64,000 bases of DNA from Patescibacteria group bacterium (GTDB lineage Bacteria > Patescibacteriota > Kazan-3B-28): contig JAQUNP010000001.1 in the NCBI GenBank assembly GCA_028717565.1, forward strand, positions 229,996-293,995. Reading direction: 5' to 3'. Shown piece after piece: positions 5,597 through 64,000 of this stretch (position 1 is its first letter; each line of letters begins with the position of its first letter). Under the pieces are notes generated by a model. That model did no database searches. It saw only the letters and a list, made by a program, of their open reading frames with translations, and had not been told where the DNA came from. The position numbers were made by a program, and so were the translations under genes.

Positions 5597-5619
5597 CCCC
5601 GATTCACCTGGAACCGGGG
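5597..5619. terminator. bidirectional hairpin between convergent genes
   Basis: CCCCG (5597-5601) / CGGGG (5615-5619) between the tsaB stop and the stop of the 115-aa ORF. Confidence 0.5.
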
Positions 5620-5620
5620 A

Positions 5621-5968
5621 TTAGAAACCAACTAGGAAGCGAGTGGTTTTGCCTTCTAAAATGGCTTGGCCTAAAGGGATTTCTTCGGCCGCTTGAAAGT
5701 TAGCTGGGTTGTTTAAAATATCTTGAACGTACTTTTGGTATGCAAAGTTCTCCGGTATTGCAGTCGGTTCGAGCATCGTCACTACTGGCGCCGCCTCTAC
5801 TGGAGCGATGGCCGCTTCGGCCATGGCAGCTAGACCAGTGTGGCCACACAAAACATTAATTTCTTCACGGAAGAGAACGATACCTACCAACAAAATATAA
5901 CCCGTCACAATGAAGCCGATCATAGTCGGACTAAGTAGGCGGCGGATTGTGTTGGGGAGGTAGGTCAT
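5621..5968 (-). CDS. hypothetical single-TM protein (115 aa), co-oriented 40 nt downstream of the giant gene
   Basis: ORF track; one hydrophobic helix (MIGFIVTGYILLVGIVLF); no terminator between it and the giant gene. Confidence 0.55.
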   Translation of the reverse strand: MTYLPNTIRRLLSPTMIGFIVTGYILLVGIVLFREEINVLCGHTGLAAMAEAAIAPVEAAPVVTMLEPTAIPENFAYQKYVQDILNNPANFQAAEEIPLGQAILEGKTTRFLVGF

Positions 5969-6008: not shown

Positions 6009-9000
6009 CTATGGCTTCGGCGAACCGTCGCCGAAGTTGGTTAACCAATACCACAGATCGTAGCCGTTGACTAAGAAGTCACGATGCATATCGGCCAGAT
6101 AGGAGTCGGCATCCCAAGCCGCTAGGATAATATCTAAGTCGAGGCCATTGATTTGATTGTCGTGCCACGGAGTCGTGACTTGCTGTGCATTGATTTCGGG
6201 GGACAGGTCAGAGGCCTTGAGTTCATTAAAGGTCACATTGACTGTTGAGCTAGCCGAAGAAGTAGTGAATTGTTTGGTGGCCGCTAAGTGGTTTTTACCT
6301 TTAACCCACACGTCATAGGTTTTATTGGCGCGAAGATAGAACGGATTAGGTAGACCTTGCAGCAGCTCGTTGCCGTCACGGGAGTAGGCCTCATCGACTT
6401 CATAAGGTTCGACAGAGTTGGCCTCATGAATAGTTAACCAGATGCCTGGGTTGGTGACATTATCATAATCGTAATCGCGTGCCTCGACAGGTACCTTGAT
6501 GCCTAGATTGGTGATAGGCACCAGACCGTTTTCAAATGAAATCGGAGCCTTGACGGTAGTACCGGCAATTAAGGCAGTGGCTTCAGTTTTGTGAGCCGTA
6601 TTAGAGCTGACTCTAAAGACCACATGGCCACCATTACTGGTAGTAAATGTACTCGGATTATTTATGCCAGCGCCCGTGACATCGCGCAGAACATCCTGTG
6701 TTGAGTTAGTGGTACCAATGGTAACGGAAATACCATCCAGCGGGATGCCGTTATCATTTCTTACGGTCACCGTCACAGTCGAGTAGGCGCTGCCATTGGC
6801 TGGCACACGATACGGTGCCGCAGCAATATGACGATATCCCACGTCCTGGCCGGCGACTTTCTGCAATAACAAACTCTTTTGGGGCAGGAGCAGGGGTACG
6901 GCACTAGCAAAGACGTTGCCAATCTGACTACCTGGCACAAAGTTGGTGGTTAGTGTACCAGCTAAGCTCGTGACACCGTTGTAGCGAGTCAGATAATCCG
7001 CCGTGTGCTGACCAGCGAGTTTGAAAACAATCGGCCAGCCACCCATCGGTTTTAGAGTTTGACCATCAACCAAAGTAGCGGTTAGGATGACGTAATCACT
7101 GCCACCCACCTCCACAGTAGTTTTGTTAGCCGCCCACGTCAGCTGATATCTTTCGGTGTCAGCATTGTATTTGTTGATAGTTATTGGATTTGAGTACAAC
7201 CAGCCATAGGTAGGCAAGAGGGCCTTGGCACGAATCTCGACCGTGCCTACATTGGCATCGGCCACATAATGGCTATAGGCAATACCCAAGCCGTTGCTTT
7301 TATCAATAACCGGGTCTAGTGAGCCGGTGCCATCGGTAATGATGAAAGTCACATCCTGCTGAGGCACCACTTTGCCAGTGGGGTCAGTGAGGGTGGCAGT
7401 CAACAGAGAGGCGGCATATTGTCCAGGAATGATTTCGAGCTTATCCACTTCGCTAATCAACTCAAATTCGTAGACGTTGTCTTGCTTTATGATAGTGGTT
7501 GATCCTTCTACAAAGACGCCTTCCGTGGCATTTTCATACGTAGCCAAAATACTGGCTTCGATTGGTTCCACGCCGGCCTCTTCATTGTCGATGGTGTAGG
7601 TGAAGGTAAAACCGCCATGCTCGTCGGTAGTTACTTCTTTGGTGCTAAGAGTGCCTTGCTCCCGTTCATCTTGGAAGTGAATATCCACAACGGCGTCAGC
7701 TACTGGGATAATACCACCCGTGCCAACATCAAACCGAGCTAAGATGCCCGTAATAGTAGATTTTTCCAGACCGTTCCGTAGCAAAGCATTGGGGCTGGCA
7801 GTCATATCAATGGCATAACCACTGCTGGAGACGATTGTAAAATCATAGTGACCCGGATATTCAGCATGTTCGGTATAGGACTTGTCGACAAAGGTTTCGA
7901 CGTAGATATCCCAGTAACCAATCTTGGCACTGGCCGGGATAGAGGTTTCCACTACGAGTTGATTCGCACTGAGCACGTTGATCTTGGCAGGATCAGTTAT
8001 ATCAAAACCGTCCGTACCGGGATTCTTGTTATTAGGACTGGGCCGGAAATGAACTGTAGTTCTGTCCTTAGGCGCGACCGTATCAAAGTTGGTGTTAGTA
8101 CCAGTGATAGTAATGTTAAGTGTATCGCCACGATCGCTTGTACGCGGGACAACGCTGGCTAGATACGGGCCAGTGTTTTCGCCTGGTAGTACGGTAAAGA
8201 AAGTGGTTAGACGTTCCGTATAGGCAAAGCCCGTGTCGGTCACGGCAGGGGAGAGAGTAGTAACTCTCCAAATTCCTACAGGAGCCAAGCTGCCAATTTT
8301 TATATCAAAGGTTAGAACCTGTGAGTTCTGATTAATTTCTAAGTTCTCAACCTCAATTGTGCTGATACCTCCAGCCAAGTGATTATAAATTTCCCGACGA
8401 TCGGAGACAAAGTAACCATCAACTTGGGCATGGGCAATTATAAAATCGTAGCCAGGATTATTGGACTCATACCAAACCTCGCGGCAGGCCTCGCCATCAC
8501 CATAAGTACAGCTGGTTGGTGTGGTGTCGATAGTACCGCCGTTGGTAGCAATAAACTGGACGCTGCCACCGTATGTATCGGTAATATTAATCGGGTTGCC
8601 ATCTTGGCCAGTTTCATAAACTCTTACTTTAATAATGGAACGGGTAGTGTTTTCGTCTAACTCTTTGGGATCAACGCTGATGATGCTTAATGAATACGGG
8701 CTGACCGGCTCGATTGCGCGTAACCAAACATGGGCGTCATAATCAACACCAGCATAGGTAGTAGCGCCGACGATTTCGACCATGCCAGCATCCTCCGCAA
8801 CCGGTGCTCGATAGGTAATAGTGGCGATACCACTGGAATTGGTCGGGTAAGTCAATATATCCGGTGGCGAGAAATGGCCAGCGCCGGTGACAATTTCAAA
8901 AGTGATAGGTTGGCCGGCAATGGCGTTACCCTCGTCGTCAACAAATTTGGCAGAAACGGTTTTGGTAGATTGGCCATCCGCCACCACTTGATCGTCGCCC

Positions 9001-12000
9001 GAACTGTAAAGAGCGAGCTGTGATGGTTCATCGAAGAACACCGTGGTCTCGAGACCAAAATGCGAATCGGTACCGGCTATCTGCACATCGTAAATGGTCT
9101 GGCCTTGTTCGCCTTCATCGGGTTCGATGCGTATACCACCCGCATCCGGCACTCCAGCGGAGAACGGCCCCATGTATTGGGTAACTGAAGAACCAATGCC
9201 GCCGTATTGATACACCACACGCGATGGGTTTTCGGTTAAATTAACCGCCGTCAGTCCAGCTGTGGGGAAGCTAGAGGTTAAGTTGACTGGCATTTCAGCC
9301 ATAATTTGCCAACTTTGGCTAAAGGCATCGCCAACCGGAACGTACATGGTGGTTTCAGGGTGGAATTGGAAGCGAATCCACTCTATTTCCTCACCGGGGT
9401 CGCCACCACTTGCTCCTTCGCCAAAAGTTTCGCCCGTGGCTTCGGCAATATTTGGATACATTGGCACATGCGGATCAAGCAAGAAGATCTCGGAGTCGGC
9501 AGGAATGGTGCTGTCATAGCGGTTGTAGGTATTTTTTTGTTGGAAGTCACTTTGTCCACCATGAACCAACACGCCCCCATCCAAGCCAGTAGCAAAGTTG
9601 TTGTAAACCGGAATTGGTTCATGCTCCCCATCATGAATATCACGATAGTCGGCATCGACTTGCCAACCATTGGTCCATTTTTCAGTGCTAGCCGAGGCCT
9701 CAACCTCAATGCGAATGACATCTGTATCGTAAAGTGGACCACCAGTAGTCGGAATCCGATAGGCATAGACCTCCATCACTTCAACATCGTTGGCAATGTT
9801 TCGCAAACCTCCGACGGCGATGAAGTCGTCACCGCTGGGCGTGTAGGAAGCCAGGCCAAAGAAGGCACGACCATGCGCAACTCCGCTCTCCTTGAAGGCA
9901 TATTTAGCATCCAGTTTACTGCGACTATTTGCCAGTCCGGTTACCGGAGTGGTGCCCGACCAATAAGTATTATTAGCCGCCAGTCGGTAGGCCACATTAC
10001 CAACGAATTTATAGTTGAGGGATTTACCGAAGTCCATAACTGGCATACCAAATGGCTTATTGGATCCATCTGGTAGTTTCGACGTAGTATAAAACGGATG
10101 GATGACATCATCTATAACCCAAAAAGTTTTTACTCGGTAGTTATCAACCCGAGCCGTCTGAACATCTGGAGAGATGGGTTGTGGATCGGACGGCCAAGGC
10201 GGGAAGTGAGTAAAGTAGGTTTTGGCAAGCTTGCCGATATGGCTCACCTCCAAGCTCTTAAACCAGCTGGCACCGCCCAGCACTAGAATCTCTCCGGCTT
10301 GGGTTTTTATAACCTCATGTCCATAGCGACCTTGCGGCACTGGCACAATAGAGTAGACCGTTTCTGTCACAGCGTCGGGAGATTCAATGTAGGTGGGCGA
10401 GCCACCACCGGTAACATACCACTGTGGGGTGGTAGTAACTTGGTTGGCTTGAGCCATAAAGCGCAAGTGACCTAAGTGCATTACTCGATTGACCGCCCAC
10501 ACGTCACTCAACTGACCGATATAGTCACTTTCCAGTTCACGTTCAATTGAACCACTGGCAGTCGCGCTAGCGGTTTTGACAATATAGTGTTCACCCACAG
10601 TGGTGACGAAATCACCTGAAAGCAGGGCGTCGCGCAAAAGGGGAGCGAGGTCGATACTGGACTTGATTTTAAATTCATCAGTCATAGCCAAAACATCACC
10701 CATGTGGCTGGGGTGTAAACTGACCATGCGAATAGTAGCATGTTCCGAATAAACATCCGACGGAACCGCCCAAGCCAACTGCTGCGCGGTGACGTTCACG
10801 ATATTGTTGGTGCCTACTTTGTACCAGACTGGGTTGTCATCCAACTTTTTGACTGCATATTCCAACTGGACCGCAAAGCTTTCTTGGGTCGGGACGTTGG
10901 TGTACCAACGAATAGCATAGTTGCTGCCCGGTTCGATGACGGCTGGTTCTTGTTCGCCAGTTTCAGTGTTGAACGGTACAGGCGCACTAAATAATACCCA
11001 GGGCTGACCCCGGTCAGAAACTTGAAAAGTATTAGACAATGACCGTGTCTCTTGCGGATAGTAGTTTACCAACCAAGGATAAGGAGGGACTAAGGTTAAT
11101 CTGAATTGGACTTCGTAAGTAGTCCCGTCAGTTCCAAAGGTTTGCCAGGTATAGCCACCTCGCCCTGCGGGAACCTCGGTGACAAACTGCCAATCCGTCC
11201 AAGTGGTGTTGCCCACAGCACGCCTTTTGTATTCAACCTTTACCGTGCTGTTGGCACCATGAGAGTCCCAAGTGATTCTCTGGCTAGTGTATTCCGACCG
11301 ATCAGTTAGATTCTGCGCGGCTTGAATCCAGTACTCGGGCTTCAAAAGCACTGTGACAGTGTCCACATGTGCACCTGTACATTCAGGATCAATTTCAAAT
11401 TTACCAGTTTCAGGATTGAGACGGTAAGCGGATTGGTCACACAACTTAATGTCAGCCAGAATGTCGTTGCCATGGCCAACATAGGTACCACCCGAGTAAC
11501 TTCCCACGCGCCAAGCATATTTACCGTCGTTCTCTGTACGAGCACTGATAGTTTGCCATTCGGACCAGTAATTATCATCTTCAGGGGGTGGATCGTCGAA
11601 ACTAAACTCACCGCTGTCTTCGTCCAAAATGCGAATAAACAGAGCTGCGAATTGAGTCGCCTGTGGCTCCCAGGTTATGTCATAGTAATCACCAATCTGG
11701 AGTTCTTCCAGTTTTTGTCCGACTGGTTTGCTGGGATCAAAGTCGCGCGGCGTGATGATGCCTAGGTTACTTTGGGCGAAGGCCTTGGTTACAAAATTTT
11801 TCAACCTCATCGCCAGATTGACCATGGTGGTGCTCAATGATTTGTTGAGACCGGCCTCGGCGGCAGCCACGTCGGCAGCCCTGAGCGTATCGATTAGTGT
11901 TTGTCGCGTAGTGTTGATGCCCACATTTAAGCCCCGGTCAGTGGCCAGCTGCTGCAGCTGGTCGGTAGTCATCGAGTCGTACTCATCCGTGGTGGTAGTG

Positions 12001-12911
12001 CTGGTCGTAGAGACAACTGCACTGGTAGATGTGTGATAAGAAACCGTTGTGCCTTGATTGATAGTGGAGCCCACCGTGCCCCCAGGAAGATAGAGTTGGC
12101 TACCAATCGAACCGCCTGGGCCGATGACACGTTTGGTGCTTAAATTCAGCTCCTGCCACTGGCTGCTACCCCAGTCCACAATGCTTTGTAGGGGGTCGCC
12201 ATCCACGCCGACTGGCAGATCGAATGGATAACCATAAACACCACCCATAATATGCAAATCGGTACCGACCGAGATTACTTCTGGATAATAGTTCACACCA
12301 GTCAGCAAGGCGTACACCTTCCAACCGGATTCAATATTGGTTAGGTCCAGACGTTCGATAGTGGAATAAAAGAGTCCGATCTTGTCTGGCTCTTCGGGCG
12401 GAGTATGCATATCACCTGCCACCACGTATAAGAAATTGCCCACTCTCTCGACACCAAACTCCATGTGACCGAAGTTCAGATCGGGGACTTGTTTCCAGTC
12501 AACAAAATTGTTGGTACCGGGTTTAGTTTGGATTAAGCCAGTTTGGTTATCTACCTCGATTCTTTGAACAGAGTTAGACGCCACCCATTCGGTTTGGCCA
12601 TTAATGTAATTGTACCTGGCATCGCCGCCGCCAATAACATAAAGCCAGGTTTGGCCACCCTGTTCTAGTTGGACCAGTTTGGCATGTGCCCGTTTTTCGC
12701 CACCAGTATTCTCAACTTGTTCCCAGGTTTTGTCTAAATCGACAGGCAAAATACCGGCTCGGCTGCCAAAGAGAGAGAAGAGATTGCTAATTTGAGTAGA
12801 GAAAAACACTGCTCCAAACAGCACAAACAGCCCGACAACAAAAATAATCAGGCGTGAGCGGTTCCTAGGGACATCTAACCACTCAAAGAATTGTTCTCTC
12901 CAATTAGACAT
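6009..12911 (-). CDS. giant (2300 aa) N-terminally anchored surface protein: Kelch-like beta-propeller blades, HeH/SAP-like motif, many Ig-like (Big_1-type) repeats, dockerin-like duplicated C-terminal segment
   Basis: A single uninterrupted ORF. TM helix at residues ~20-40. Repeated blade signatures (LYVIGGG, LYVVAGD, LHIMGGV, ILVLGGA, FIAVGGL, VLVHGGQ, YQYGGIG). Invasin-like repeats, e.g. DGQSTKTVSAKFVDDEGNAIAGQPITFEIV. C-terminus DNQINGLDLDIILAAW / DFLVNGYDLWYWL. Confidence 0.9.
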   Translation of the reverse strand: MSNWREQFFEWLDVPRNRSRLIIFVVGLFVLFGAVFFSTQISNLFSLFGSRAGILPVDLDKTWEQVENTGGEKRAHAKLVQLEQGGQTWLYVIGGGDARYNYINGQTEWVASNSVQRIEVDNQTGLIQTKPGTNNFVDWKQVPDLNFGHMEFGVERVGNFLYVVAGDMHTPPEEPDKIGLFYSTIERLDLTNIESGWKVYALLTGVNYYPEVISVGTDLHIMGGVYGYPFDLPVGVDGDPLQSIVDWGSSQWQELNLSTKRVIGPGGSIGSQLYLPGGTVGSTINQGTTVSYHTSTSAVVSTTSTTTTDEYDSMTTDQLQQLATDRGLNVGINTTRQTLIDTLRAADVAAAEAGLNKSLSTTMVNLAMRLKNFVTKAFAQSNLGIITPRDFDPSKPVGQKLEELQIGDYYDITWEPQATQFAALFIRILDEDSGEFSFDDPPPEDDNYWSEWQTISARTENDGKYAWRVGSYSGGTYVGHGNDILADIKLCDQSAYRLNPETGKFEIDPECTGAHVDTVTVLLKPEYWIQAAQNLTDRSEYTSQRITWDSHGANSTVKVEYKRRAVGNTTWTDWQFVTEVPAGRGGYTWQTFGTDGTTYEVQFRLTLVPPYPWLVNYYPQETRSLSNTFQVSDRGQPWVLFSAPVPFNTETGEQEPAVIEPGSNYAIRWYTNVPTQESFAVQLEYAVKKLDDNPVWYKVGTNNIVNVTAQQLAWAVPSDVYSEHATIRMVSLHPSHMGDVLAMTDEFKIKSSIDLAPLLRDALLSGDFVTTVGEHYIVKTASATASGSIERELESDYIGQLSDVWAVNRVMHLGHLRFMAQANQVTTTPQWYVTGGGSPTYIESPDAVTETVYSIVPVPQGRYGHEVIKTQAGEILVLGGASWFKSLEVSHIGKLAKTYFTHFPPWPSDPQPISPDVQTARVDNYRVKTFWVIDDVIHPFYTTSKLPDGSNKPFGMPVMDFGKSLNYKFVGNVAYRLAANNTYWSGTTPVTGLANSRSKLDAKYAFKESGVAHGRAFFGLASYTPSGDDFIAVGGLRNIANDVEVMEVYAYRIPTTGGPLYDTDVIRIEVEASASTEKWTNGWQVDADYRDIHDGEHEPIPVYNNFATGLDGGVLVHGGQSDFQQKNTYNRYDSTIPADSEIFLLDPHVPMYPNIAEATGETFGEGASGGDPGEEIEWIRFQFHPETTMYVPVGDAFSQSWQIMAEMPVNLTSSFPTAGLTAVNLTENPSRVVYQYGGIGSSVTQYMGPFSAGVPDAGGIRIEPDEGEQGQTIYDVQIAGTDSHFGLETTVFFDEPSQLALYSSGDDQVVADGQSTKTVSAKFVDDEGNAIAGQPITFEIVTGAGHFSPPDILTYPTNSSGIATITYRAPVAEDAGMVEIVGATTYAGVDYDAHVWLRAIEPVSPYSLSIISVDPKELDENTTRSIIKVRVYETGQDGNPINITDTYGGSVQFIATNGGTIDTTPTSCTYGDGEACREVWYESNNPGYDFIIAHAQVDGYFVSDRREIYNHLAGGISTIEVENLEINQNSQVLTFDIKIGSLAPVGIWRVTTLSPAVTDTGFAYTERLTTFFTVLPGENTGPYLASVVPRTSDRGDTLNITITGTNTNFDTVAPKDRTTVHFRPSPNNKNPGTDGFDITDPAKINVLSANQLVVETSIPASAKIGYWDIYVETFVDKSYTEHAEYPGHYDFTIVSSSGYAIDMTASPNALLRNGLEKSTITGILARFDVGTGGIIPVADAVVDIHFQDEREQGTLSTKEVTTDEHGGFTFTYTIDNEEAGVEPIEASILATYENATEGVFVEGSTTIIKQDNVYEFELISEVDKLEIIPGQYAASLLTATLTDPTGKVVPQQDVTFIITDGTGSLDPVIDKSNGLGIAYSHYVADANVGTVEIRAKALLPTYGWLYSNPITINKYNADTERYQLTWAANKTTVEVGGSDYVILTATLVDGQTLKPMGGWPIVFKLAGQHTADYLTRYNGVTSLAGTLTTNFVPGSQIGNVFASAVPLLLPQKSLLLQKVAGQDVGYRHIAAAPYRVPANGSAYSTVTVTVRNDNGIPLDGISVTIGTTNSTQDVLRDVTGAGINNPSTFTTSNGGHVVFRVSSNTAHKTEATALIAGTTVKAPISFENGLVPITNLGIKVPVEARDYDYDNVTNPGIWLTIHEANSVEPYEVDEAYSRDGNELLQGLPNPFYLRANKTYDVWVKGKNHLAATKQFTTSSASSTVNVTFNELKASDLSPEINAQQVTTPWHDNQINGLDLDIILAAWDADSYLADMHRDFLVNGYDLWYWLTNFGDGSPKP

Positions 12912-12984
12912 AGTTTTATTTTAATTTTTTTCTTGTAATTCTCCTAATACTATCACCTTACAAGAACCCCCAATATGCAAAAAC

Positions 12985-13013
12985 ATTATACTATTTTTTT
13001 AGTATTTTGTCAA
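12985..13013 (-). promoter_or_regulatory. consensus promoter of the giant gene
   Basis: TTGACA(13013-13008)-17 nt-TATAAT(12990-12985). The ~70-nt leader has a 9-bp hairpin TTCTTGTAA/TTACAAGAA and no obvious SD at the ATG. Confidence 0.7.
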
Positions 13014-13021
13014 GGGGTAGT

Positions 13022-14086
13022 TTACTCGACCCCTAGTTCCTCTAAAGTCGCCCGCTGAATGTCGCTGCCCGCGCCAGTTCCCGTGCTGGCAGTACCGCTG
13101 GTATCATCTTGGTCCGGCATATAATAGCCAGTGATAACTTCACGGATGTAATCCTCATCAGCGACCATGAAGGCGAGAGGGGTATCAAACTGTGCGGCCA
13201 GTTCGCCCATTCTTTCGGGTGACGGCTCAGCAATAGCTACGGTCAAGGCCTCGCCGGAACGGGCGATTGGCACTGCCATGTATTTCACTGCGGTATCATA
13301 CGACATTTCCTGTACCACACCAGGATCAATTTGATAGCGAGAGAGGTCAATGGAGGGAATATGGTACTGATTGCCTAGTGCTCGAATCAGCTCTTCGCGA
13401 GAAATAAGTTCTTTGTCCAATAAGATCTTGCCTAAACGCTGGCCACTACTGTGTTGTTCACGCAAGGCCATAGTTAGGTCTTGGTGCGAGATTGAACCTT
13501 GCGCGACTAAAATCTCACCCAGAGTTTGCGTTGGCTTCATAGTTTTGACTGTCATCTCTCCCGTTCCAGAAGCAGGGTGGGTAGATTCGCTGTAATCAGA
13601 AATGACTTGGGCCCATTTTCTGGCATTGGGGATAGACCGCAACTCAAAGAAACTTTCCTTCCCCGCGGATTGTACCTTTATATCACCGAAACCGAACACC
13701 GAAGCCCAGGTGCCTTGGATGGTAAAACGCACGTCTTGAATCTGGGAAAACGGAATTTGAGAAATCCGACGGTTGAAAAGAGTAACTAGTTGAATATCAA
13801 TTAAGCGTTCCTGGGTAAGTATCCATGCATCCATATACCAGAAAATCCACTGCATCATGAAGAAACTGATAACAAAGACAATATATAATCCACCAAACAT
13901 CCAAGCGCCGGCTTCGACTAAAGGATCCTCAGTCAGCCCTAGTGCGTTAACGCCAATTGCGCCTAAAGCCATTGGCAACAACATGGCCACAGACCATCCA
14001 AAGGGCGCTAGCAAGTTTAAAACATGCCGACGTAGGGTCTTCTCAATACGCTCCTTGGTGGCAAATTGTGAGTCAGAGTACGCCAT
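13022..14086 (-). CDS. membrane bPH (YdbS/YdbT-like) domain protein fused to a T2SSE_N/MshEN-type domain
   Basis: 354 aa: 2 TM helices, then a PH-like region (ILTQERLIDIQ...IQDVRFTIQG...FGFGDIKVQSAG). Two 24-residue motifs, TLGEILVAQGSISHQDLTMALREQ and RLGKILLDKELISREELIRALGNQ, are separated by 5 residues. Confidence 0.8.
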   Translation of the reverse strand: MAYSDSQFATKERIEKTLRRHVLNLLAPFGWSVAMLLPMALGAIGVNALGLTEDPLVEAGAWMFGGLYIVFVISFFMMQWIFWYMDAWILTQERLIDIQLVTLFNRRISQIPFSQIQDVRFTIQGTWASVFGFGDIKVQSAGKESFFELRSIPNARKWAQVISDYSESTHPASGTGEMTVKTMKPTQTLGEILVAQGSISHQDLTMALREQHSSGQRLGKILLDKELISREELIRALGNQYHIPSIDLSRYQIDPGVVQEMSYDTAVKYMAVPIARSGEALTVAIAEPSPERMGELAAQFDTPLAFMVADEDYIREVITGYYMPDQDDTSGTASTGTGAGSDIQRATLEELGVE

Positions 14087-16593: not shown

Positions 16594-18495
16594 CTATATT
16601 ACATTAATAGTCCAACTAAAAGTTGGGCCAAACCAAGTTATGTATTCGGATACCAACTGGAAGGTTTCTGTGTAAACGCCTGTCTGGCTCGGCGCGAACA
16701 CTTCAACCGCAAGAGTTATAGAACTACCAGGCGGAACATTGAAGCCACCGGTCAAAACGCGATTAGGACTTAGCCAGGTGGGGAGATAAAAGATGCTTTT
16801 ACGATCATGGGGGAGGGCAGTGCCCAGTTTGACGACGCCGGTATTTGAACCGGATTGGCTGCCTAGCCAAGTAGCCGTTCCGGTGTTTTTCAACGTAACA
16901 GACAATAAGACCTTTTCACCCGGACTGGCTACCAATGGACTATTAATTTGTTCGACGTTGGCCTGGTAGGCCACTGGGCTAACAACCGTACCAGACGCCC
17001 CCCCAGTCCCAGTGACAGTGACATCCCAATAGATGCCCAAGTCATTCAGCCAGGTGACTCCCTCGGCCACAACACTAAAATACTCCCTGAAATTGCCAGG
17101 TTGACTTGCGGATATGGTAAAGGTAAAGCGACCAGTTTCGCCCGGCTGGACTACAGCCGGGGACATAGTAGCAGCCCGATTCGAGCTTAACCAACTAGTG
17201 TGATATAAGCTACTCGCTCGATCTTTGGGTCGGTCAGTGCCTAAACGCACTTGACCCATATCGGTTGCCGACTGGACTTGGCTGACCCACGTAGCGGCAC
17301 CAGCATTTTTGAGCTCTACCCACAAAGTAGTTTGCTCACCAACCGCCAGAGTCGGATAGGCACTCTGACCGAGCCATTGCATCCGATAATCAGCGGGGTT
17401 AGAGCTAACTGTAGCTGACGCGACTTGAGTCCCAGCCTGCCCCAGCGCCGCCCAAGCATCAGCGCGTCCGGAACCAAAGAAAATACTTTGGCCGCTACCT
17501 AGCGGAAACGCAGTCGTAGTCATTAAATGCTGGATCTGACTAGGCGAAAGTGCTGGATTCTTTGCCAACAACAAAGACACTATGCCAGTCACTTGTGCAG
17601 AGGCAAAAGACGAGCCAGCTCCATCAACATAATCCTGGCTGCCTAGACCCGCCATCACGATATTCTCACCTGGGGCGACTATGTCCATATTGCTACCATA
17701 GTTTGAAAAGGCAGACAGTTGATTTTGGGCATTAATTGAACCGACGGCAATCACTTGAGGATATCGCGCTGGGTAAAAAATTTCGCCACTGCTATTGTTG
17801 CCAACCGCCGCCACTATCGACACCCCATGCGAGATGGCATAAGTAACGGCTTCGGATAATACCGCTGCATCTGAATTTGAACCAAAGCTCATGTTAATAA
17901 CTGAGGCACCATTGTCCACGGCATAGCGGATGGCTTCAGCCACATCCCAAAAATCGCCTCCGCCCAAATTGTCCAAGGCCTTTAGTGCCATAATGCGCGC
18001 CGACCAATTGATGCCAGCCAGACCCAATTGATTGTTGGTGTTAGCCGCTATGATACTAGCGATGCCAGTCCCGTGGCCATGGCCGTCATTAATATCGGAG
18101 TTGCGATTATAAAAATTGTATCCGAGATAATCATCGACATATCCATTGTGATCATCATCCATTCCGTTATCGGGGATCTCGTCACTATTAACCCAGAGAC
18201 GATTTGTTAAATCTTGATGGTTCCTATTGATTCCAGTATCGATGACTGCCACCGTTGAGGGTGAGCCAGTAGCCAAACTCCAGGCCTGATCAATTTTTAA
18301 TGTACGGAGTGAGACCTGCTGAGGGAAGTAGGGATCGTTGGGGTTGACGGTTTGGATACGAACGGGAGTCGGTTGAATTTGCCCCAAGATTTGTCCAGCA
18401 ATATAAACGTCCGACTCTGACGAAGCCAAGGTCGGCGAAATACCCGCGCAGGTGAAGGGCAGCAATATCGCGACTAGGACAAGCATTTTTCGCAT
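16594..18495 (-). CDS. secreted subtilisin-like (S8) serine peptidase with two C-terminal NBR1-type Ig-like repeats
   Basis: 633 aa; signal peptide; catalytic triad contexts AVIDTG, HGHGTG, GSSFASAQVTG; two ~120-aa repeats homologous to the N-domain of the L,D-transpeptidase at 47243. Confidence 0.9.
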   Translation of the reverse strand: MRKMLVLVAILLPFTCAGISPTLASSESDVYIAGQILGQIQPTPVRIQTVNPNDPYFPQQVSLRTLKIDQAWSLATGSPSTVAVIDTGINRNHQDLTNRLWVNSDEIPDNGMDDDHNGYVDDYLGYNFYNRNSDINDGHGHGTGIASIIAANTNNQLGLAGINWSARIMALKALDNLGGGDFWDVAEAIRYAVDNGASVINMSFGSNSDAAVLSEAVTYAISHGVSIVAAVGNNSSGEIFYPARYPQVIAVGSINAQNQLSAFSNYGSNMDIVAPGENIVMAGLGSQDYVDGAGSSFASAQVTGIVSLLLAKNPALSPSQIQHLMTTTAFPLGSGQSIFFGSGRADAWAALGQAGTQVASATVSSNPADYRMQWLGQSAYPTLAVGEQTTLWVELKNAGAATWVSQVQSATDMGQVRLGTDRPKDRASSLYHTSWLSSNRAATMSPAVVQPGETGRFTFTISASQPGNFREYFSVVAEGVTWLNDLGIYWDVTVTGTGGASGTVVSPVAYQANVEQINSPLVASPGEKVLLSVTLKNTGTATWLGSQSGSNTGVVKLGTALPHDRKSIFYLPTWLSPNRVLTGGFNVPPGSSITLAVEVFAPSQTGVYTETFQLVSEYITWFGPTFSWTINVI

Positions 18496-18575: not shown

Positions 18576-18649
18576 GGGTCCATAGCTTAGTGGTAAAGCA
18601 GTTGCCTTTTAAGCAATTGATGAAGGTTCGATTCCTTCTGGACCCACCA
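18576..18649 (+). tRNA. tRNA-Lys (anticodon UUU), CCA encoded
   Basis: GGGTCCA acceptor pairs with TGGACCC. Anticodon arm GTTGC-CTTTTAA-GCAAT. T arm GAAGG-TTCGATT-CCTTC. A-CCA end. Confidence 0.93.
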
Positions 18650-26149: not shown

Positions 26150-26224
26150 TGGTAGCCCGTAGGGGAGTCGAACCCCTGTTTCAAGCTTGAAAAGCTTGCG
26201 TCCTAACCGTTAGACGAACGGGCC
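26150..26224 (-). tRNA. tRNA-Glu (anticodon UUC), CCA encoded
   Basis: GGCCCGTTCGTCTAACGGTTAGGAC... Anticodon arm CAAGC-TTTTCAA-GCTTG. T arm GGGGTTCGACTCCCC. G1-U72 wobble. Confidence 0.92.
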
Positions 26225-26265
26225 CTATGAGTCGACCGACTCTTCGGGCTCAAGACCTTAAGCCA

Positions 26266-26327
26266 GTGCAGTGGGATTTGAACCCTTGGTCAATTCTGCT
26301 AAATAGCAGAATGGCTGCTTAACTGCC
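26266..26327 (-). pseudogene. decayed tRNA-like fragment (T-arm-like GGGTTCAAATCCC, abnormal anticodon-like hairpin, no D arm)
   Basis: Minus strand GGCAGTTAAGCAGCCATTCTGCTATTTAGCAGAATTGACCAAGGGTTCAAATCCCACTGCAC. Only a 3-bp T stem and a 5/7 acceptor pairing. The anticodon-like hairpin has a 6-nt (or 8-nt) loop. Confidence 0.4.
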
Positions 26328-26331
26328 AGGG

Positions 26332-26403
26332 TGGGCGCAGAAGGATTCGAACCTTCGGCCAATCGCTTAAGAGGCGACTGCTCTACCGCTGAGCTATGCG
26401 CCC
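26332..26403 (-). tRNA. tRNA-Lys (anticodon CUU), 3' CCA not encoded (ACCC)
   Basis: GGGCGCATAGCTCAGCGGTAGAGCA; anticodon arm GTCGC-CTCTTAA-GCGAT; T arm GAAGGTTCGAATCCTTC; TGCGCCC-A. Flanks extend the acceptor helix by 8 bp. Confidence 0.92.
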
Positions 26404-26410
26404 ACCCTGA

Positions 26411-26445
26411 CTGTTAAGCCTTCCCACCGCTTTAGCTATGTGCCC
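26411..26445 (-). pseudogene. degenerate duplicate of the 5' half of tRNA-Lys(CUU)
   Basis: Minus strand GGGCACATAGCTAAAGCGGTGGGAAGGCTTAACAG aligns to GGGCGCATAGCTCAGCGGTAGAGCAGTCGCCTCTTAAGCG of the intact gene just downstream. Confidence 0.5.
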
Positions 26446-26459
26446 AGGTTGTTAATTAC

Positions 26460-26536
26460 TGGCGTCCCCGGGAGGACTCGAACCTCCGACCTTTGGTACC
26501 GGAAACCAACGCTCTAATCCGCTGAGCTACGGGGAC
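26460..26536 (-). tRNA. tRNA-Arg (anticodon CCG), CCA encoded
   Basis: GTCCCCGTAGCTCAGCGGATTAGAGC; anticodon arm TTGGT-TTCCGGT-ACCAA; T arm GGAGGTTCGAGTCCTCC; CGGGGAC-G-CCA. Confidence 0.92.
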
Positions 26537-26578
26537 ATTGTAGCGGTTTAATTCAAACAATGTCTAGGCCAAGCCTAC

Positions 26579-26654
26579 TGGGGTGGACGATGGGATTCGA
26601 ACCCACGACCGCTCGGACCACAACCGAGAGCTCTACCGCTGAGCTACGTCCACC
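26579..26654 (-). tRNA. tRNA-His (anticodon GUG) with encoded G-1, CCA encoded
   Basis: G-GTGGACGTAGCTCAGCGGTAGAGC; anticodon arm CTCGG-TTGTGGT-CCGAG; T arm GTGGGTTCGAATCCCAT; CGTCCAC-C-CCA. The extra 5' G opposite C73 is the His identity element. Confidence 0.93.
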
Positions 26655-26665
26655 ATGAAACATCT

Positions 26666-26741
26666 TGGCACCCCGGGCAGGACTCGAACCTGCGACGCTC
26701 GGTTTAGAAAACCGATGCTCTATCCACTGAGCTACCGGGGC
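26666..26741 (-). tRNA. tRNA-Arg (anticodon UCU), CCA encoded
   Basis: GCCCCGGTAGCTCAGTGGATAGAGC; anticodon arm TCGGT-TTTCTAA-ACCGA; T arm GCAGGTTCGAGTCCTGC; CCGGGGT-G-CCA. Confidence 0.92.
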
Positions 26742-27392: not shown

Positions 27393-27468
27393 TGGAGCGG
27401 GTAACGGGAATCGAACCCGTATCTTCTGCTTGGAAGGCAGATATAATAAGCCGTTATACTATACCCGC
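27393..27468 (-). tRNA. tRNA-Gly (anticodon UCC), CCA encoded
   Basis: GCGGGTATAGTATAACGGCTTATTATA; anticodon arm TCTGC-CTTCCAA-GCAGA; T arm ACGGGTTCGATTCCCGT; TACCCGC-T-CCA. D loop unusually long (11 nt). Confidence 0.9.
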
Positions 27469-33045: not shown

Positions 33046-33297
33046 CTACTTCTTTTTGCGAGCCGTGGTCTTACGACGACGGGTCGTAGTGCGTTTCTTG
33101 GTCGTAGTCCGCTTGCGAGTTGTAGTCCGCTTCTTGGCAGTAGACTTCCGACGGGTTGTTGTCCGCTTCTTGGCAGTAGACTTCCGGCGAGTTGTTGTCC
33201 GCTTCTTAGCGGTTGTCTTCCGACGGGTTGTCTTCTTGCGAGTAGCGGGTTTACGCTTTGCGGTTGTCCGCTTCTTGCGTATCATGCTGACCCCCAT
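33046..33297 (-). CDS. hypothetical poly-basic repeat protein (K/R/T-rich, histone H1-like composition)
   Basis: MGVSMIRKKRTTAKRK...; 12-aa repeat KKRTTTRRKSTA encoded by 36-bp tandem DNA repeats. Start uncertain (ATG 33297 or 33285; the track uses TTG 33321). Confidence 0.6.
   Translation of the reverse strand: MGVSMIRKKRTTAKRKPATRKKTTRRKTTAKKRTTTRRKSTAKKRTTTRRKSTAKKRTTTRKRTTTKKRTTTRRRKTTARKKK
33125..33196. repeat. 36-bp tandem repeat x2 (34/36 identical) with degenerate flanking copies
   Basis: GTCCGCTTCTTGGCAGTAGACTTCCGACGGGTTGTT (33125-33160) vs GTCCGCTTCTTGGCAGTAGACTTCCGGCGAGTTGTT (33161-33196). Confidence 0.9.
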
Positions 33298-47242: not shown

Positions 47243-48190
47243 ATGCACCTCACCCAGTTTAAATTTTTAGTAGTGTCCCTGCTCGGCTTCTCCATGGTAG
47301 TGGGGATTTTTAATGTCTCCAGCACCTTCGCAGGGATTAACGATCCTGACACCGATTACGTAGCAGTTAATAATACGCCGGTTTTAAGTATGCGGCCTGG
47401 TGAAACTCGACAGGTGAGCGTTTTATTGAAAAACGCCTCGGTTGAAACTTGGGGAAGAGACATCGTGAAGTTGGGAAGTGTTTTCTACACCGAAGATATT
47501 GATCGACCAAGTGCGTGGGTAACTGATGAATGGGAGTCCAACACGCGGGTGAGCGCAGACAACGAAAGCAGCATTAGACCCTTGCAGATCGCTGAATTCA
47601 CTTTTTCTGTCACAGCACCCGAGCGCACAGGGGTTTATCAAGAATATTTTCGCCCGGTACTAGAATACAATCGCTGGTTGAATGGCGCGCCGGTTATTTT
47701 GACATTCAAGGTAGGCGAACTGGGTGATGTGATGGTGGCAGAGGGAGCCGAGAAGGAAGTCCGCATTTATCGCCGAACTCAAGAAGCAGACCTGCTAACC
47801 GGCGGTGTGATTATAGCCACCCTGCCGATATCTTCAGGCGCTCCGGGTTATAGCACCCCAGCTGGACAATATTCAATCATGAACCATTATAAGGACGCCT
47901 ATTCGTCTGAATATGCTTTGTGGATGCCGCATTGGATGGGGCTATATAGTTTTCAAAACGGATTCCAAGGATACGGTTTGCATGGTTTGCCCTACTGGAG
48001 AGTAAACCCAGCAAGATACGAAGAGGGCATGGTTTATCCTGGTGGTCGGCTCTATACACAAGGTCGGCTCTACGAAGGTTATGAGCATTTGGGTAAGCCC
48101 GTTTCACACGGCTGCGTGAGATTTGGAATTGATGAAATAAAGGTTGTGTACGACTGGGCCGAGAACGGTACACCAGTGACTATTATCTAA
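47243..48190 (+). CDS. L,D-transpeptidase (YkuD domain) with N-terminal NBR1-type Ig-like domain
   Basis: Signal/TM N-terminus; catalytic HGLP...SHGCVRF motif. Confidence 0.9.
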   Translation: MHLTQFKFLVVSLLGFSMVVGIFNVSSTFAGINDPDTDYVAVNNTPVLSMRPGETRQVSVLLKNASVETWGRDIVKLGSVFYTEDIDRPSAWVTDEWESNTRVSADNESSIRPLQIAEFTFSVTAPERTGVYQEYFRPVLEYNRWLNGAPVILTFKVGELGDVMVAEGAEKEVRIYRRTQEADLLTGGVIIATLPISSGAPGYSTPAGQYSIMNHYKDAYSSEYALWMPHWMGLYSFQNGFQGYGLHGLPYWRVNPARYEEGMVYPGGRLYTQGRLYEGYEHLGKPVSHGCVRFGIDEIKVVYDWAENGTPVTII

Positions 48191-52274: not shown

Positions 52275-52326
52275 GCGCTCTGGGAGCAAGAAAACTCTTG
52301 ACAGGACCCTTAATTTGGAGAATAAT
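52275..52326 (+). promoter_or_regulatory. promoter of cassette D with shared upstream module
   Basis: GCGCTCTGGGAGCAAGAAAACTC-TTGACA(52298-52303)-17 nt-AATAAT(52321-52326). 27/29 identical to 1234-1206 on the minus strand. Partial repeat GCGTTCTGGGGGAAACTCTAGAACGC in the leader (52342-52367). Confidence 0.7.
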
Positions 52327-53443: not shown

Positions 53444-53472
53444 TTGACAAGGAATAATTTTTATGATATAAT
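53444..53472 (+). promoter_or_regulatory. perfect consensus promoter of the 451-aa ORF
   Basis: TTGACA(53444-53449)-17 nt-TATAAT(53467-53472); GGGGA SD 8 nt before the ATG. Confidence 0.7.
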
Positions 53473-61584: not shown

Positions 61585-62525
61585 AGAGCTGCCGTAGTAA
61601 CTAACTTCACCGGAACATTCTCTGGAGCACATGCCCCAGTTTTTAGCTGATGGTCTATAGCCACCAAGCATTGGTATTGAGCCGTCAGCTGCGCCTTGGT
61701 TAAACCTTTTACGAGGGCTAGGTTTTGTTTGACCGCAAAGGGATGAAGCCCAACGCGAGCAGCGATTTGATGAGCTGACAGTCCTTGGTTGGCTAACTCC
61801 CAAACCTGAACCGCTCCCCTGAGCTGAAAGGTAAGTGCCCCTAGGATTTTCACAATATCTTCGCCTTTATCTAACTGCTGGTTAAAAATATCCAAGAATG
61901 TCCGAGAATCCTTTCTCACTAGGGCGGACAAGGCGGAAAAAACATTAAGTTGGAGCACACCAGGCAAAAGTGCGGCGATATCCGTTTCACACAGCGTTCG
62001 ATTTTGGGAGAAGGCGCTCAGTTTTTTGAGGTCATTATCAATCCCCAGAAGATCGCCCTGGCTGCTGACAATCAGTTGGTCAACGATAGCTGGAGTTAAT
62101 TTTAATCCGTACCCTAAAGCAAGCTCACCAACTCGCCGAACTAGCACGATGCCTGTCGGGTTTAAGAATTCTTGAACTTGCCTGGGCTTATTTAAAAACT
62201 TATAAAGTGCTTGGCGTTTGTCAAAGGTTTCTGATTCATAAAAAATCACCGTGGTGTCACTAAAATCCTGAGGCTTTATTAGCTCTAGCAGGGCGGTCTT
62301 GAACTCGGCGGGGGAGAGAGCCAAAATATTTTTTAGGACAATCAGCCGCTTGCCTCCAAGAAGGGTTTGCGCCAAAAAGAGATTGGGTAGTTTGGGAATA
62401 GTCAGCTCGTTAGCAGAACGCACCAAGAGATTCTCGGGCGGGTTGGTGGCTAAAAACTTATCTTGAATCGCCGTCAATTTTTGACGGGAAGACAAAACAT
62501 CTTCGCCATAAAGTAAAAACATCAT
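61581..62525 (-). CDS. holA: DNA polymerase III delta subunit
   Basis: 314 aa; LLYGEDVLSSRQKL N-terminus and delta-like helical C-domain. Confidence 0.75.
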   Translation of the reverse strand: MMFLLYGEDVLSSRQKLTAIQDKFLATNPPENLLVRSANELTIPKLPNLFLAQTLLGGKRLIVLKNILALSPAEFKTALLELIKPQDFSDTTVIFYESETFDKRQALYKFLNKPRQVQEFLNPTGIVLVRRVGELALGYGLKLTPAIVDQLIVSSQGDLLGIDNDLKKLSAFSQNRTLCETDIAALLPGVLQLNVFSALSALVRKDSRTFLDIFNQQLDKGEDIVKILGALTFQLRGAVQVWELANQGLSAHQIAARVGLHPFAVKQNLALVKGLTKAQLTAQYQCLVAIDHQLKTGACAPENVPVKLVTTAAL

Positions 62526-63967: not shown

Positions 63968-64000
63968 GTATTTTGATTTCGGTACTAAGTTAAGGTCATC

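Follow-up and report, generated by a model that had tools for sequence, protein, structure and literature searches.

A giant modular protein of Patescibacteria with Kelch-like blades, an Ig-like stalk and a dockerin-like tail

Much of the diversity of uncultured bacteria belongs to the Patescibacteria, which for the most part live attached to other cells, and the molecules through which they make contact are largely unknown. What, then, are we to make of a patescibacterial gene that encodes a single polypeptide of 2300 amino acids (aa); is it an attachment device, a strut of the cell envelope or perhaps not a working gene at all? The gene lies in a 64,000-nucleotide (nt) stretch of contig JAQUNP010000001.1 (GenBank assembly GCA_028717565.1, positions 229,996 to 293,995), referred to here as the window, of which its uninterrupted 6.9-kb open reading frame (ORF) occupies 10.8%, close to the 11% estimated when the DNA was first read by eye. 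That reading, hereafter the original prediction, proposed a host-contact or adhesion machine. The product is recorded at NCBI as MDD5605954.1, "Ig-like domain-containing protein" of a Patescibacteria group bacterium.

From its N-terminus, the protein runs through a transmembrane (TM) segment, two blocks of Kelch-like blades (A and B) with a low-complexity linker and a hypervariable insert between them, a stalk of immunoglobulin (Ig)-like domains and a dockerin-like tail (Table 1). The combination of a split Kelch-like module carrying a hypervariable insert, a stalk with Big_1 domains and a dockerin of the type linked to X modules (X-Doc) is an arrangement not described before, and it represents a new architectural variant among modular bacterial surface proteins. 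On balance, we lean toward the interpretation that the protein is an envelope-anchored, adhesin-like modular fibril of an ultra-small bacterium of the candidate phyla radiation (CPR) that would dock through its dockerin to a cohesin-like partner.

A rare family with a dockerin-like tail

The gene is real and intact, neither a pseudogene nor an assembly artifact, because an identical 2300-aa protein is present in the independent Logan assembly of SRR22315506, the N-terminus MSNW.EQF is common to the protein and its nearest homologue, and Tandem Repeats Finder detects no tandem DNA repeats inside the gene. The check for frameshifts or stops in an independent assembly that had been suggested with the original prediction thus came back clean. 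An in-frame TAA at 12923-12921 rules out a start farther upstream, and a phmmer search of the PDB with the whole protein gave no significant match.

How widespread is such a protein? A word-indexed search returned seven homologues with 29-41% identity, and a scan of GTDB species genomes added six further loci; ten syntenic orthologues of 1577-2647 aa are found in other Patescibacteria metagenome-assembled genomes (MAGs). The loci, given L numbers below where they must be told apart, come from MAGs labelled Patescibacteria or uncultured bacterium, with one labelled Candidatus Saccharibacteria and one being a complete 560-kb chromosome. An exhaustive hidden Markov model (HMM) search of 1.84e9 representative proteins with a profile of blade block B retrieved only 41 clusters at E <= 1e-10, most of them of 1.6-3.0 thousand aa, plus a few short fragments. 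Other homologue searches were limited by the word index; with the N-terminal alignment as query, fewer proteins were returned than with a single sequence, and with a profile of the X-like domain plus dockerin there were no matches. No description of the giant-protein family was found in the literature. The family is rare and uncharacterized, and it is restricted to Patescibacteria relatives. Its members share two conserved ends and differ in the middle, as judged from identity by region.

The last domain of the stalk (D10) and the dockerin-like tail together form the second best conserved part of the protein (identity 0.36-0.38). The tail contains loop-plus-helix segments at residues 2247-2266 and 2274-2293, whose pattern of Asp and Asn residues is invariant across 11 orthologues; the first repeat reads ...D2235...D2251-N-x-I-N2255-x-x-D2258 and the second D2274-x-H-x-D2278-x-x-V-N2282-x-x-D2285, each followed by a helix. 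AlphaFold2 (AF2) places helices at 2256-2264 and 2283-2293, with low values of the predicted local distance difference test (pLDDT). When a profile of the 11 orthologous tails was compared with the PDB, more than 20 dockerin chains and essentially nothing else were matched (at the top, 2y3n_B at 1.5e-5, 5k39_B at 4.1e-5, 5g5d_B at 2.9e-4 and 2b59_B at 4.2e-4), a result that was repeated with a longer profile and that bears out the dockerin resemblance first suspected in this duplicated, Asp/Asn-rich segment. In the alignments with the type II X-Doc chains of CipA, 5g5d_B and 2b59_B, both repeats and the "DNxINxxD" signature of the first loop are covered. Among the individual orthologues, Pfam Dockerin_1 is matched in six of 11 (best value 0.0034), four (L005, L011, L012 and L013) have textbook dockerin loops, for example ADLNGDGAVNVHDF, and in these four and L004 the second loop follows the canonical pattern D-x-N/D-x-D/N-G-x-V-N-x-x-D. 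When the window and all loci were scanned with a regular expression for more dockerin motifs, these turned up in the giant proteins only, apart from one chance match in a small L003 protein. Taken at the level of profiles, the C-terminal segment appears to be a genuine dockerin relative, closest to the type II dockerins that are linked to X modules.

From the stalk to the membrane anchor

The tail is preceded by a stalk of about ten beta-sandwich domains, of which D10 (residues 2129-2232) stands immediately before the dockerin. AF2 models the C-terminal half of the protein (1255-2300) with a mean pLDDT of 78.4 and as all-beta except for the two dockerin helices, and Foldseek retrieves arrays of Ig and macroglobulin (MG) domains with E values down to 1.6e-20, which is a generic match. 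Pfam is more specific: Big_1 reaches 86 bits (cutoff 34.9; 2e-24 overall) and Invasin_D3 55 bits (cutoff 33), with Big_1 falling in four to five domains, namely D2 (1306-1378), D6, D7, D8 (weak) and D9 (2033-2122), at segment E values of 3e-13, 3e-4, 3e-6, 0.054 and 1.3e-8. The original prediction of at least six to eight invasin/intimin-type Ig repeats therefore holds as far as the domains go, although membership of the invasin/intimin family does not; Pfam finds no outer-membrane beta-barrel, LysM or C-type-lectin match in the protein, and an inverse autotransporter is rejected for want of a barrel anchor or lectin-like tip, a single TM helix and a dockerin being present instead.

Other families that resemble parts of the protein were also rejected. 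An alpha-2-macroglobulin (A2M) or thioester protein would be expected to show CxEQ and a helical domain, yet the protein has no CxEQ and its modeled C-terminal half no helical domain apart from the two dockerin helices; the four Cys residues (491, 511, 1468 and 1476) lie outside any CxEQ, MG4 reaches E = 0.01 only, and the Foldseek matches to A2M and complement are generic matches between beta-sandwich arrays. A sortase-anchored LPXTG adhesin does not fit a C-terminus of ...NFGDGSPKP without a second hydrophobic segment. A giant adhesin of the type I secretion system (RTX class) was likewise dismissed, with no RTX or HemolysinCabind match in Pfam or NCBIfam.

Are the repeats of the N-terminal half Kelch propellers, as the original prediction held? 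Seven candidate blades of the type R/G-x-x-h....hhhhGG are distributed over blocks A and B. When single-blade HMMs were run against shuffled and reversed controls, B1, B3, B4 and B6 scored above them and B2 was marginal; in genuine Kelch proteins, the HMMs of B1 and B3 pick up the hhhhGG strand of one blade after another, scoring about 20 bits where the controls reach 4 at most, and that of B6 matches 12 successive blades of the Kelch protein P0043. Beyond the family, the block B profile matches proteins with three to ten stretches each, nearly all through the GRYGH..GGASW blade, these weaker matches having library-wide E values of 8e-11 to 1e-3, and the seven non-family matches that were sampled all proved to be true Kelch propellers (Pfam E 1e-63 to 1e-134). 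Sub-threshold Pfam Kelch matches occur in five of the ten orthologues, and one match is above its cutoff (Kelch_2 on L003, 22.4 against 21.3 bits). Comparisons by hhalign of the blade blocks with the neighboring Kelch protein described below, and of block A with block B, detect single-blade similarity only (E 0.004-0.7). In the AF2 model of the N-terminal half, only residues ~75-225 are moderately confident (pLDDT 50-85), and they are all-beta; a Foldseek search with the low-pLDDT model of residues 55-1254 returned mostly Ig matches from the insert and one weak match to the Kelch propeller of FBXO42. The repeats are, on this sequence evidence, of Kelch type at the level of motifs and profiles, and a closed propeller fold is not confirmed by AF2. 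What had been described as blades recurring throughout the first ~1250 residues resolves into two separate blocks (~59-300 and 750-1254).

In some genomes, extra secreted proteins are encoded between the giant and the small TM protein that follows it: a protein of 461-464 aa in L009 and L010, two proteins in L013 and a Kelch protein of 1310-1473 aa in three loci (L003:15246-19178, L005:14774-18799 and L008:12632-17050). This second large protein has a clear blade near its N-terminus and a FVFTTVG motif resembling FVTTVGEH of the giant, and the stop codon of its gene overlaps the start of the small gene. By BLASTP, the giant aligns with it over the RYGH..GG blade only (E 0.08). It looks like a distant paralogue of block B, and it is absent from the window.

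The interval between the two blocks (residues 300-750) differs widely in length; it comprises 450 aa in the window and ~380-510 in L002, L003 and L012, and shrinks to 17-31 in L009, L010 and L013. Because the blocks are nearly contiguous in the latter three orthologues, they suggest a single module that has been split by a hypervariable insertion. The insert is only 0.11 identical across orthologues, and in two of them it gives sub-threshold matches to the Ig-like Kre9_KNH family (best E 0.0046). Ahead of it, the Thr/Ser-rich linker is present as originally described and holds the sequence picked out there as a helix-extended-helix (HeH) or SAP-like motif, which had seemed odd as a DNA-binding element in an extracellular protein. 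We reject such a function as unsupported. The Pfam SAP match stays under its cutoff of 23.9 bits, at 19.2 (E 9.4e-4 for a 121-aa fragment and 0.012-0.066 for larger ones), the AF2 helices have pLDDT <35, and the segment is absent or unalignable in all ten orthologues, falling as it does in a hypervariable linker with an occupancy of 0.45 and an identity of 0.08.

At the N-terminus, the predicted short cytoplasmic stretch and single TM helix are upheld, the sole hydrophobic segment being preceded by a basic PRNRSR. The region identities of the TM segment (0.41) and the juxtamembrane segment (0.44) to the window protein are among the highest across orthologues and make the N-terminal region the best conserved part of the protein. 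Within the latter, S50 and A52 are invariant or nearly so, with S-x-A or S-A-A in all 11 orthologues, and they fit the -3/-1 rule of signal peptidase, 13-15 residues past the hydrophobic core. These features point either to a signal anchor in N-in/C-out orientation or to a long signal peptide with a candidate cleavage site at S-x-A, and everything past residue 40 should be extracytoplasmic. The strong conservation of the N-terminal segment leads us to favor the signal-anchor topology over a cleaved signal peptide. A motif of the form (E/Q)-(I/L)-x-N also occurs just after the TM segment of the small TM protein (EEIN, compared with TQISNL in the giant), perhaps by coincidence or perhaps as a common recognition or interaction element.

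Promoter, operon and neighborhood

The giant gene is preceded by the perfect sigma-70 promoter that the original prediction had pointed out, beginning 9 nt past the stop codon of the upstream gene. In eight of ten orthologous loci, TTGAC[AT]-17-(TAG)TATAAT is found 75-110 nt upstream of the ATG, and this comparative conservation is good evidence that the predicted promoter is functional. The window as a whole has nine sites with at most one mismatch (three perfect, six with one mismatch), spanning 1183-53472, against 0.42 expected from shuffles, a roughly 20-fold excess; because near-consensus sites are so far above expectation, the organism clearly uses canonical sigma-70 promoters, and that of the giant gene, one of the three perfect sites, is strong and not unique. 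The second perfect site, 27331-27303 on the minus strand, lies ahead of a 129-aa ORF and five clustered tRNA genes, and the third, 53444-53472 on the plus strand, ahead of an unannotated and charged 451-aa ORF that looks coiled-coil-like by eye. A one-mismatch site at 52298-52326 on the plus strand precedes an unannotated 326-aa ORF.

Two further features of the gene start fared less well. The leader does contain a hairpin with arms TTCTTGTAA (12966-12958) and TTACAAGAA (12938-12930) and AGGAG in its loop (12945-12941), but its fold has z = -0.13 against shuffles, and AGGAG is not conserved; the nearest orthologue, L002, retains the stem with one U.G wobble and has AGGCA in place of AGGAG, and other orthologous loci have a TGnTACAAT-like element where the hairpin would be. 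With no Rfam family near the leader either, the hairpin is unsupported as a riboregulator. It is likewise true that no Shine-Dalgarno (SD) sequence stands before the ATG, although this is nothing special; since an SD-like motif precedes just ~9 of the 52 window ORFs that reach 100 aa, the missing SD is typical of the genome, and the pattern suggests that SD-independent initiation is the norm in this organism. A-rich leaders are common, those of the type AAAATAAAAAC occurring for example before 5968, 12911, 27244, 34685 and 47243.

Downstream, the 115-aa ORF with one TM segment follows the giant gene as originally described. Because the 40-nt gap between them is A-rich and without a terminator, and a hairpin at 5619-5597 comes after the second ORF, the two genes make up a predicted two-gene operon closed by a terminator-like hairpin. 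The 115-aa protein belongs to no Pfam or NCBIfam family; it has a conserved C-terminus, ..NxPxNF..EGKTxxFLxGF, and is 39% identical (E 1e-11) to the product of the 114-aa gene that closes the L005 operon.

On the other side, the neighbor is a membrane protein with bPH_2 and MshEN domains. Its MshEN domain has two tandem 24-residue motifs for binding cyclic di-GMP (c-di-GMP), TLGEILVAQGSISHQDLTMALREQ and RLGKILLDKELISREELIRALGNQ, and the NCBIfam c-di-GMP_motif scores 57.2 bits against a cutoff of 38. By its appearance, then, this reduced genome encodes a membrane-bound receptor for c-di-GMP. A bPH/MshEN protein neighbors the giant in L001, L002, L004, L005 and L006 and stands next to RuvB in most orthologous loci. 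The L003 counterpart, of 200 aa, is without bPH and MshEN domains, and in Southlakia epibionticum, a cultivated Saccharibacterium, the RuvB-PH locus has no giant gene; because of these two cases, the adjacency of the giant and the MshEN protein may be merely inherited gene order.

The wider order is conserved as EamA - TatD - PolyA_pol - PRC - 300-aa lipoprotein - S8 peptidase - BacA - (Sm_multidrug_ex) - RuvB - 66 aa - bPH/MshEN - giant - small TM protein - TsaD/TsaE. The lipoprotein and the secreted S8 subtilase hold the same positions in all loci examined.

The remainder of the window, which is rich in envelope functions, includes an L,D-transpeptidase and a VanW/PG_binding_4 protein, as well as an FtsA/PilM-like actin-fold protein followed by an unannotated membrane protein. 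There are seven tRNA genes, five within 26153-26741 and a sixth at 27396-27468 on the minus strand, and another at 18576-18646 on the plus strand. The sole tandem repeat sits between ORFs read by eye as alanyl-tRNA synthetase and ribosomal protein L25 and would encode, on the minus strand, a basic KSTAKKRTTTRR-like repeat.

Table 1. Features of the giant gene, of its product and of the surrounding window (window coordinates)
Feature	Coordinates	Strand	Remarks
Coding sequence of the giant protein	6009..12911	-	stop codon 6009-6011
Basic N-terminus, predicted cytoplasmic, residues 1-20	12852-12911	-	includes PRNRSR ahead of the hydrophobic segment
Predicted TM / signal-anchor segment, residues 21-39	12795..12851	-	sole Kyte-Doolittle window >1.6 in the protein
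Juxtamembrane motif E/Q-I/L-x-N-L...S-x-A, residues 40-58	12738..12794	-	from orthologue alignments
Kelch-like blade block A, residues 59-300	12012..12737	-	three candidate blades, ...WLYVIGG, ...FLYVVAGD, ...LHIMGGVYG; invariant motifs
Thr/Ser-rich low-complexity linker, residues 301-400	11712..12011	-	SAP/HeH-like segment and Ala-rich helices
SAP/HeH-like segment, residues 311-346	11874-11981	-	MTTDQLQQLATDRGLNVGINTTRQTLIDTLRA at residues 314-345
Hypervariable insert, residues 401-749 (~350 aa)	10665..11711	-	probably beta-sandwich; low-confidence beta-rich AF2 model, Foldseek mostly Ig-like
Kelch-like blade block B, residues 750-1254	9150..10664	-	FVTTVGEH, GHLRF, PQGRYGH..LVLGGASW, FWVIDD, GRAFFG..AVGGL, GLDGGV..GGQ, DPHVP, VVYQYGG
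Stalk of ~10 Ig-like beta-sandwich domains D1-D10, residues 1255-2232	6216..9149	-	AF2, Foldseek, Pfam
Dockerin-like module, residues 2233-2300	6012..6215	-	two repeats, end NFGxGxPxP
Sigma-70 promoter TTGACA-17 nt-TATAAT	12985..13013	-	-35 13013-13008; -10 12990-12985; 12/12 match
5' leader, ~66 nt (inferred from the -10 position)	12912..12978	-	A/U-rich 9-bp hairpin, then A-rich SD-less stretch to ATG
115-aa single-TM protein	5621..5968	-	40 nt downstream; TM ~14-33; EEIN juxtamembrane motif
Terminator-like hairpin	5597..5619	-	9 pairs, 6 G-C, T-rich tail; directly after the 115-aa ORF
Upstream membrane protein, 354 aa, 2 TM	13022..14086	-	Pfam MshEN 1.4e-12, bPH_2 1.7e-7
Secreted S8 subtilase	16594-18495	-	C-terminal Ig-like domain; Big_1 in some orthologues
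Lipoprotein, 304 aa	18688-19602	-	LSGC lipobox; no known family, no PDB match
Unannotated membrane protein, 545 aa	28321-29958	-	
FtsA/PilM-like actin-fold protein, 420 aa	29959-31221	-	
Tandem repeat	33077-33231		36-bp unit, 4.3 copies, 78% match
L,D-transpeptidase	47243-48190		
Unannotated charged ORF, 451 aa	53494-54849	+	
VanW/PG_binding_4 protein	62522-64000		cut by the window end

Possible role and known systems

How might such a protein work? In the anchored fibril that we tend to favor, the giant would be held in the cytoplasmic membrane by its N-terminal helix and juxtamembrane motif, perhaps with help from the small TM protein, and the Ig stalk, ~30-40 nm long if extended, could act as a spacer that carries the C-terminus through and past the wall. 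There, the calcium-loop dockerin would plug, in a calcium-dependent manner, into a cohesin-like module of another protein, which might belong either to a partner or host cell or to the surface layer of the bacterium itself, and the Kelch-like module with its hypervariable insert could serve as another binding surface, one that evolves rapidly. Overall, the protein would function in surface assembly or attachment, as one would expect in an obligate episymbiont. The giant is a good candidate for attachment to another cell. As to the host-contact machine of a reduced-genome organism put forward originally, a large N-anchored extracytoplasmic protein with a relative on a 560-kb chromosome agrees with it, and the adhesion or host-contact role is one that we infer.

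A number of results weigh against this interpretation. Taken alone, the window protein has no Pfam dockerin match, and its NCBIfam dockerin_GC match is sub-threshold (E 0.0047, 17.3 bits against 29); its loops are partly degenerate, the second having His at position 3 (D-x-H-x-D-..-N-..-D) and the first having ligands at positions 5, 9 and 12 but none at 1 and 3, a pattern seen also in the aligned X-Doc 5k39_B. A cohesin-like partner, which the original prediction recommended looking for, did not turn up. No Pfam cohesin match was found in the 10 unannotated window ORFs, the extra operon proteins of orthologous loci or the small TM proteins, and no cohesin appeared in a PDB profile search with the conserved lipoprotein; the area covered being the 64-kb window and the ~20-kb orthologous loci, this absence is uninformative. 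The N-terminal half is problematic too. Pfam Kelch is not matched in the window protein at E <= 0.1 to 10, blades B5 and B7 have no detectable Kelch signal by single-blade HMMs against controls, the blades are irregularly spaced (50-150 aa), and AF2 reaches a mean pLDDT of only 41.9 over residues 55-1254 from an eight-sequence alignment, so that the propeller of the original prediction is supported by blade-level profile matches to Kelch propellers but not confirmed as a fold. Finally, signal peptidase may cut at the conserved S-x-A, in which case the topology would be the opposite, and an N-terminal anchor puts the hypervariable insert next to the membrane, an odd place for a host-contact surface.

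The last two points lead to the strongest rival, which we consider possible and less probable. The first 52 residues would be a signal peptide of Gram-positive type, cleaved after S-x-A, and the mature protein would be bound through its dockerin to a cohesin anchored in the wall or membrane, with the Kelch-like module and insert as the distal tip. The CipA dockerin anchors its scaffoldin to the cell in just this orientation, and the dockerin of the giant aligns over both repeats with the X-module-linked 2b59_B, 5g5d_B and 5k39_B. The presence of S-x-A or S-A-A in every orthologue would then have a ready meaning, the hypervariability and presence or absence of the insert suit an exposed distal tip better than a membrane-proximal place, and the extra Kelch proteins of the same operons have ordinary, cleavable-looking signal peptides. 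However, 13-15 residues past a 17-19-residue core is a long way for signal peptidase I, the identity of 0.41-0.44 in the TM and juxtamembrane segments is unusual for a signal peptide that is discarded, and no cohesin-bearing anchor was found nearby in the window or loci.

Could the protein instead be a structural component of the envelope? In this reading, the giant would be present in large amounts, rooted in the membrane as a strut or as a scaffold resembling an S-layer, and its dockerins and propellers would link neighbors or the wall and fix the distance of the surface layer. A perfect, conserved promoter suggests high constitutive expression, and the conserved ends with a variable middle are consistent with such a part, as is a fixed chromosomal place among genes with housekeeping and envelope functions (BacA, S8 peptidase, L,D-transpeptidase, VanW); an envelope protein with Ig-like domains and a dockerin is, moreover, essential in Southlakia (PMC10633639). 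We think this unlikely, given that the family occurs in only a narrow range of genomes, that the RuvB-PH pair of Southlakia without a giant speaks against a general envelope requirement and that domain number and insert vary widely between orthologues, as they do in adhesins.

A releasable adhesin controlled by c-di-GMP in the manner of Lap systems is highly improbable. The MshEN receptor would sense c-di-GMP and regulate a protease such as the S8 subtilase encoded four genes upstream, and cleavage by this enzyme at S-x-A would shed the fibril. The idea draws on the 2-TM left neighbor with its two canonical MshEN motifs, adjacent in most loci, on the secreted S8 peptidase with Ig-like domains conserved nearby and on the small-x-small motif conserved beside the anchor. 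Yet the pair of PH protein and RuvB exists in Southlakia without a giant gene, the neighbor in L003 is without bPH and MshEN, the giant has its own promoter, and neither a LapG-type protease or LapD-type receptor nor, in the window, a diguanylate cyclase was seen. The reading as a pseudogene, assembly chimera or non-coding ORF, considered solely since very long repeat-bearing ORFs can be mis-assembled and for which no supporting evidence was found, is already effectively refuted by the same protein in an independent assembly, by full-length orthologues (28-41% identity) that retain both ends and synteny, by a gene free of tandem DNA repeats and by a conserved promoter and terminator.

What would follow if the favored reading, an anchored fibril with a docking tail, were correct? 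If the dockerin has a cohesin-like receptor, it would provide a testable handle on surface assembly or host attachment and would extend cellulosome-type docking to episymbiosis. If there is no such receptor, the giant would simply join the other large surface proteins with Ig repeats, and this work would chiefly provide a corrected annotation. A more ambitious version, in which the protein is the core of a non-cellulosomal cohesin-dockerin attachment apparatus in ultra-small episymbionts, with a Kelch/Ig fibril rooted in the membrane or through its dockerin, an X-Doc-like tip or base that plugs into a cohesin-like receptor yet to be recognized, an insert that sets host specificity and perhaps Lap-like switching through MshEN and S8, strikes us as quite unlikely.

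Among known systems, the X-module-linked type II dockerins of cellulosomal scaffoldins (X-Doc of CipA from C. thermocellum, PDB 2B59, 5G5D; X-Doc 5K39/5M0Y) come closest to the tail. In the cellulosome, this module fastens a very large scaffoldin to a cell-surface cohesin. Scaffoldin and giant alike end in a two-repeat, calcium-loop dockerin right after a beta-sandwich module, the first repeat being of the form "DN-x-IN-x-x-D" and the second "D-x-N-x-D-G-x-(I/V)-N-x-x-D", and the profile spans both with E values of 4e-5 to 4e-4. Unlike X-Doc scaffoldins, the giant has no cohesins, carbohydrate-binding modules or glycoside hydrolases, and it has an N-terminal membrane anchor; seven residues are inserted in its first loop, the ligands of the window copy are non-canonical (the His at position 3), and D10 is without a significant sequence match to X modules.

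The stalk and the blades have precedents of their own. With the Big_1 arrays of invasin and intimin, the giant shares rod-like tandem beta-sandwiches, of which four to five match Big_1/Invasin_D3, whereas it lacks their LysM, outer-membrane barrel and C-type-lectin-like tip, belongs to a monoderm-type CPR organism and differs in anchoring polarity, with an N-terminal TM helix in place of a barrel. With bacterial Kelch surface proteins such as P0043, which combines Kelch propellers with Big_9/cadherin-like domains, it shares a periodic match to the blade core R/G-x-x-h...hhhhGG, and with the second Kelch protein of the L003, L005 and L008 operons a weak paralogous relation (FVTTVG...RYGH..GG). 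In contrast to these Kelch proteins, only one blade of the giant gives an extended match, the blades are not set at the canonical ~50 aa, and the module is split by a variable insert, has no Pfam match and is unconfirmed in fold.

Giant proteins of ultra-small bacteria have been reported elsewhere. The dockerin-type giants of Omnitrophota, host-dependent and ultra-small, are membrane-anchored and mostly extracellular, carry dockerin/EF-hand calcium repeats and have been proposed to serve in attachment to host or prey (bioRxiv 10.1101/2023.11.21.568195). They are a looser analogue, alike in being membrane-anchored giants with calcium repeats; they exceed 30,000 aa and have many dockerin and thrombospondin repeats, enzymatic domains, a C-terminal anchor and SecA-like domains, whereas the present protein has a single terminal dockerin and no enzymatic domains. 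Southlakia epibionticum provides a precedent among Patescibacteria in SEML1_0315, an envelope protein of 927 aa with Ig-like domains that is listed as dockerin-containing, is essential by transposon sequencing and is suggested by its authors to target host surface glycans (PMC10633639). SEML1_0315 is shorter than our 2300-aa protein, has no reported Kelch-like module and stands in a different genomic context; compared by description only, both are extracytoplasmic proteins of Patescibacteria episymbionts with Ig-like domains and, going by the published listing in the case of SEML1_0315, a dockerin.

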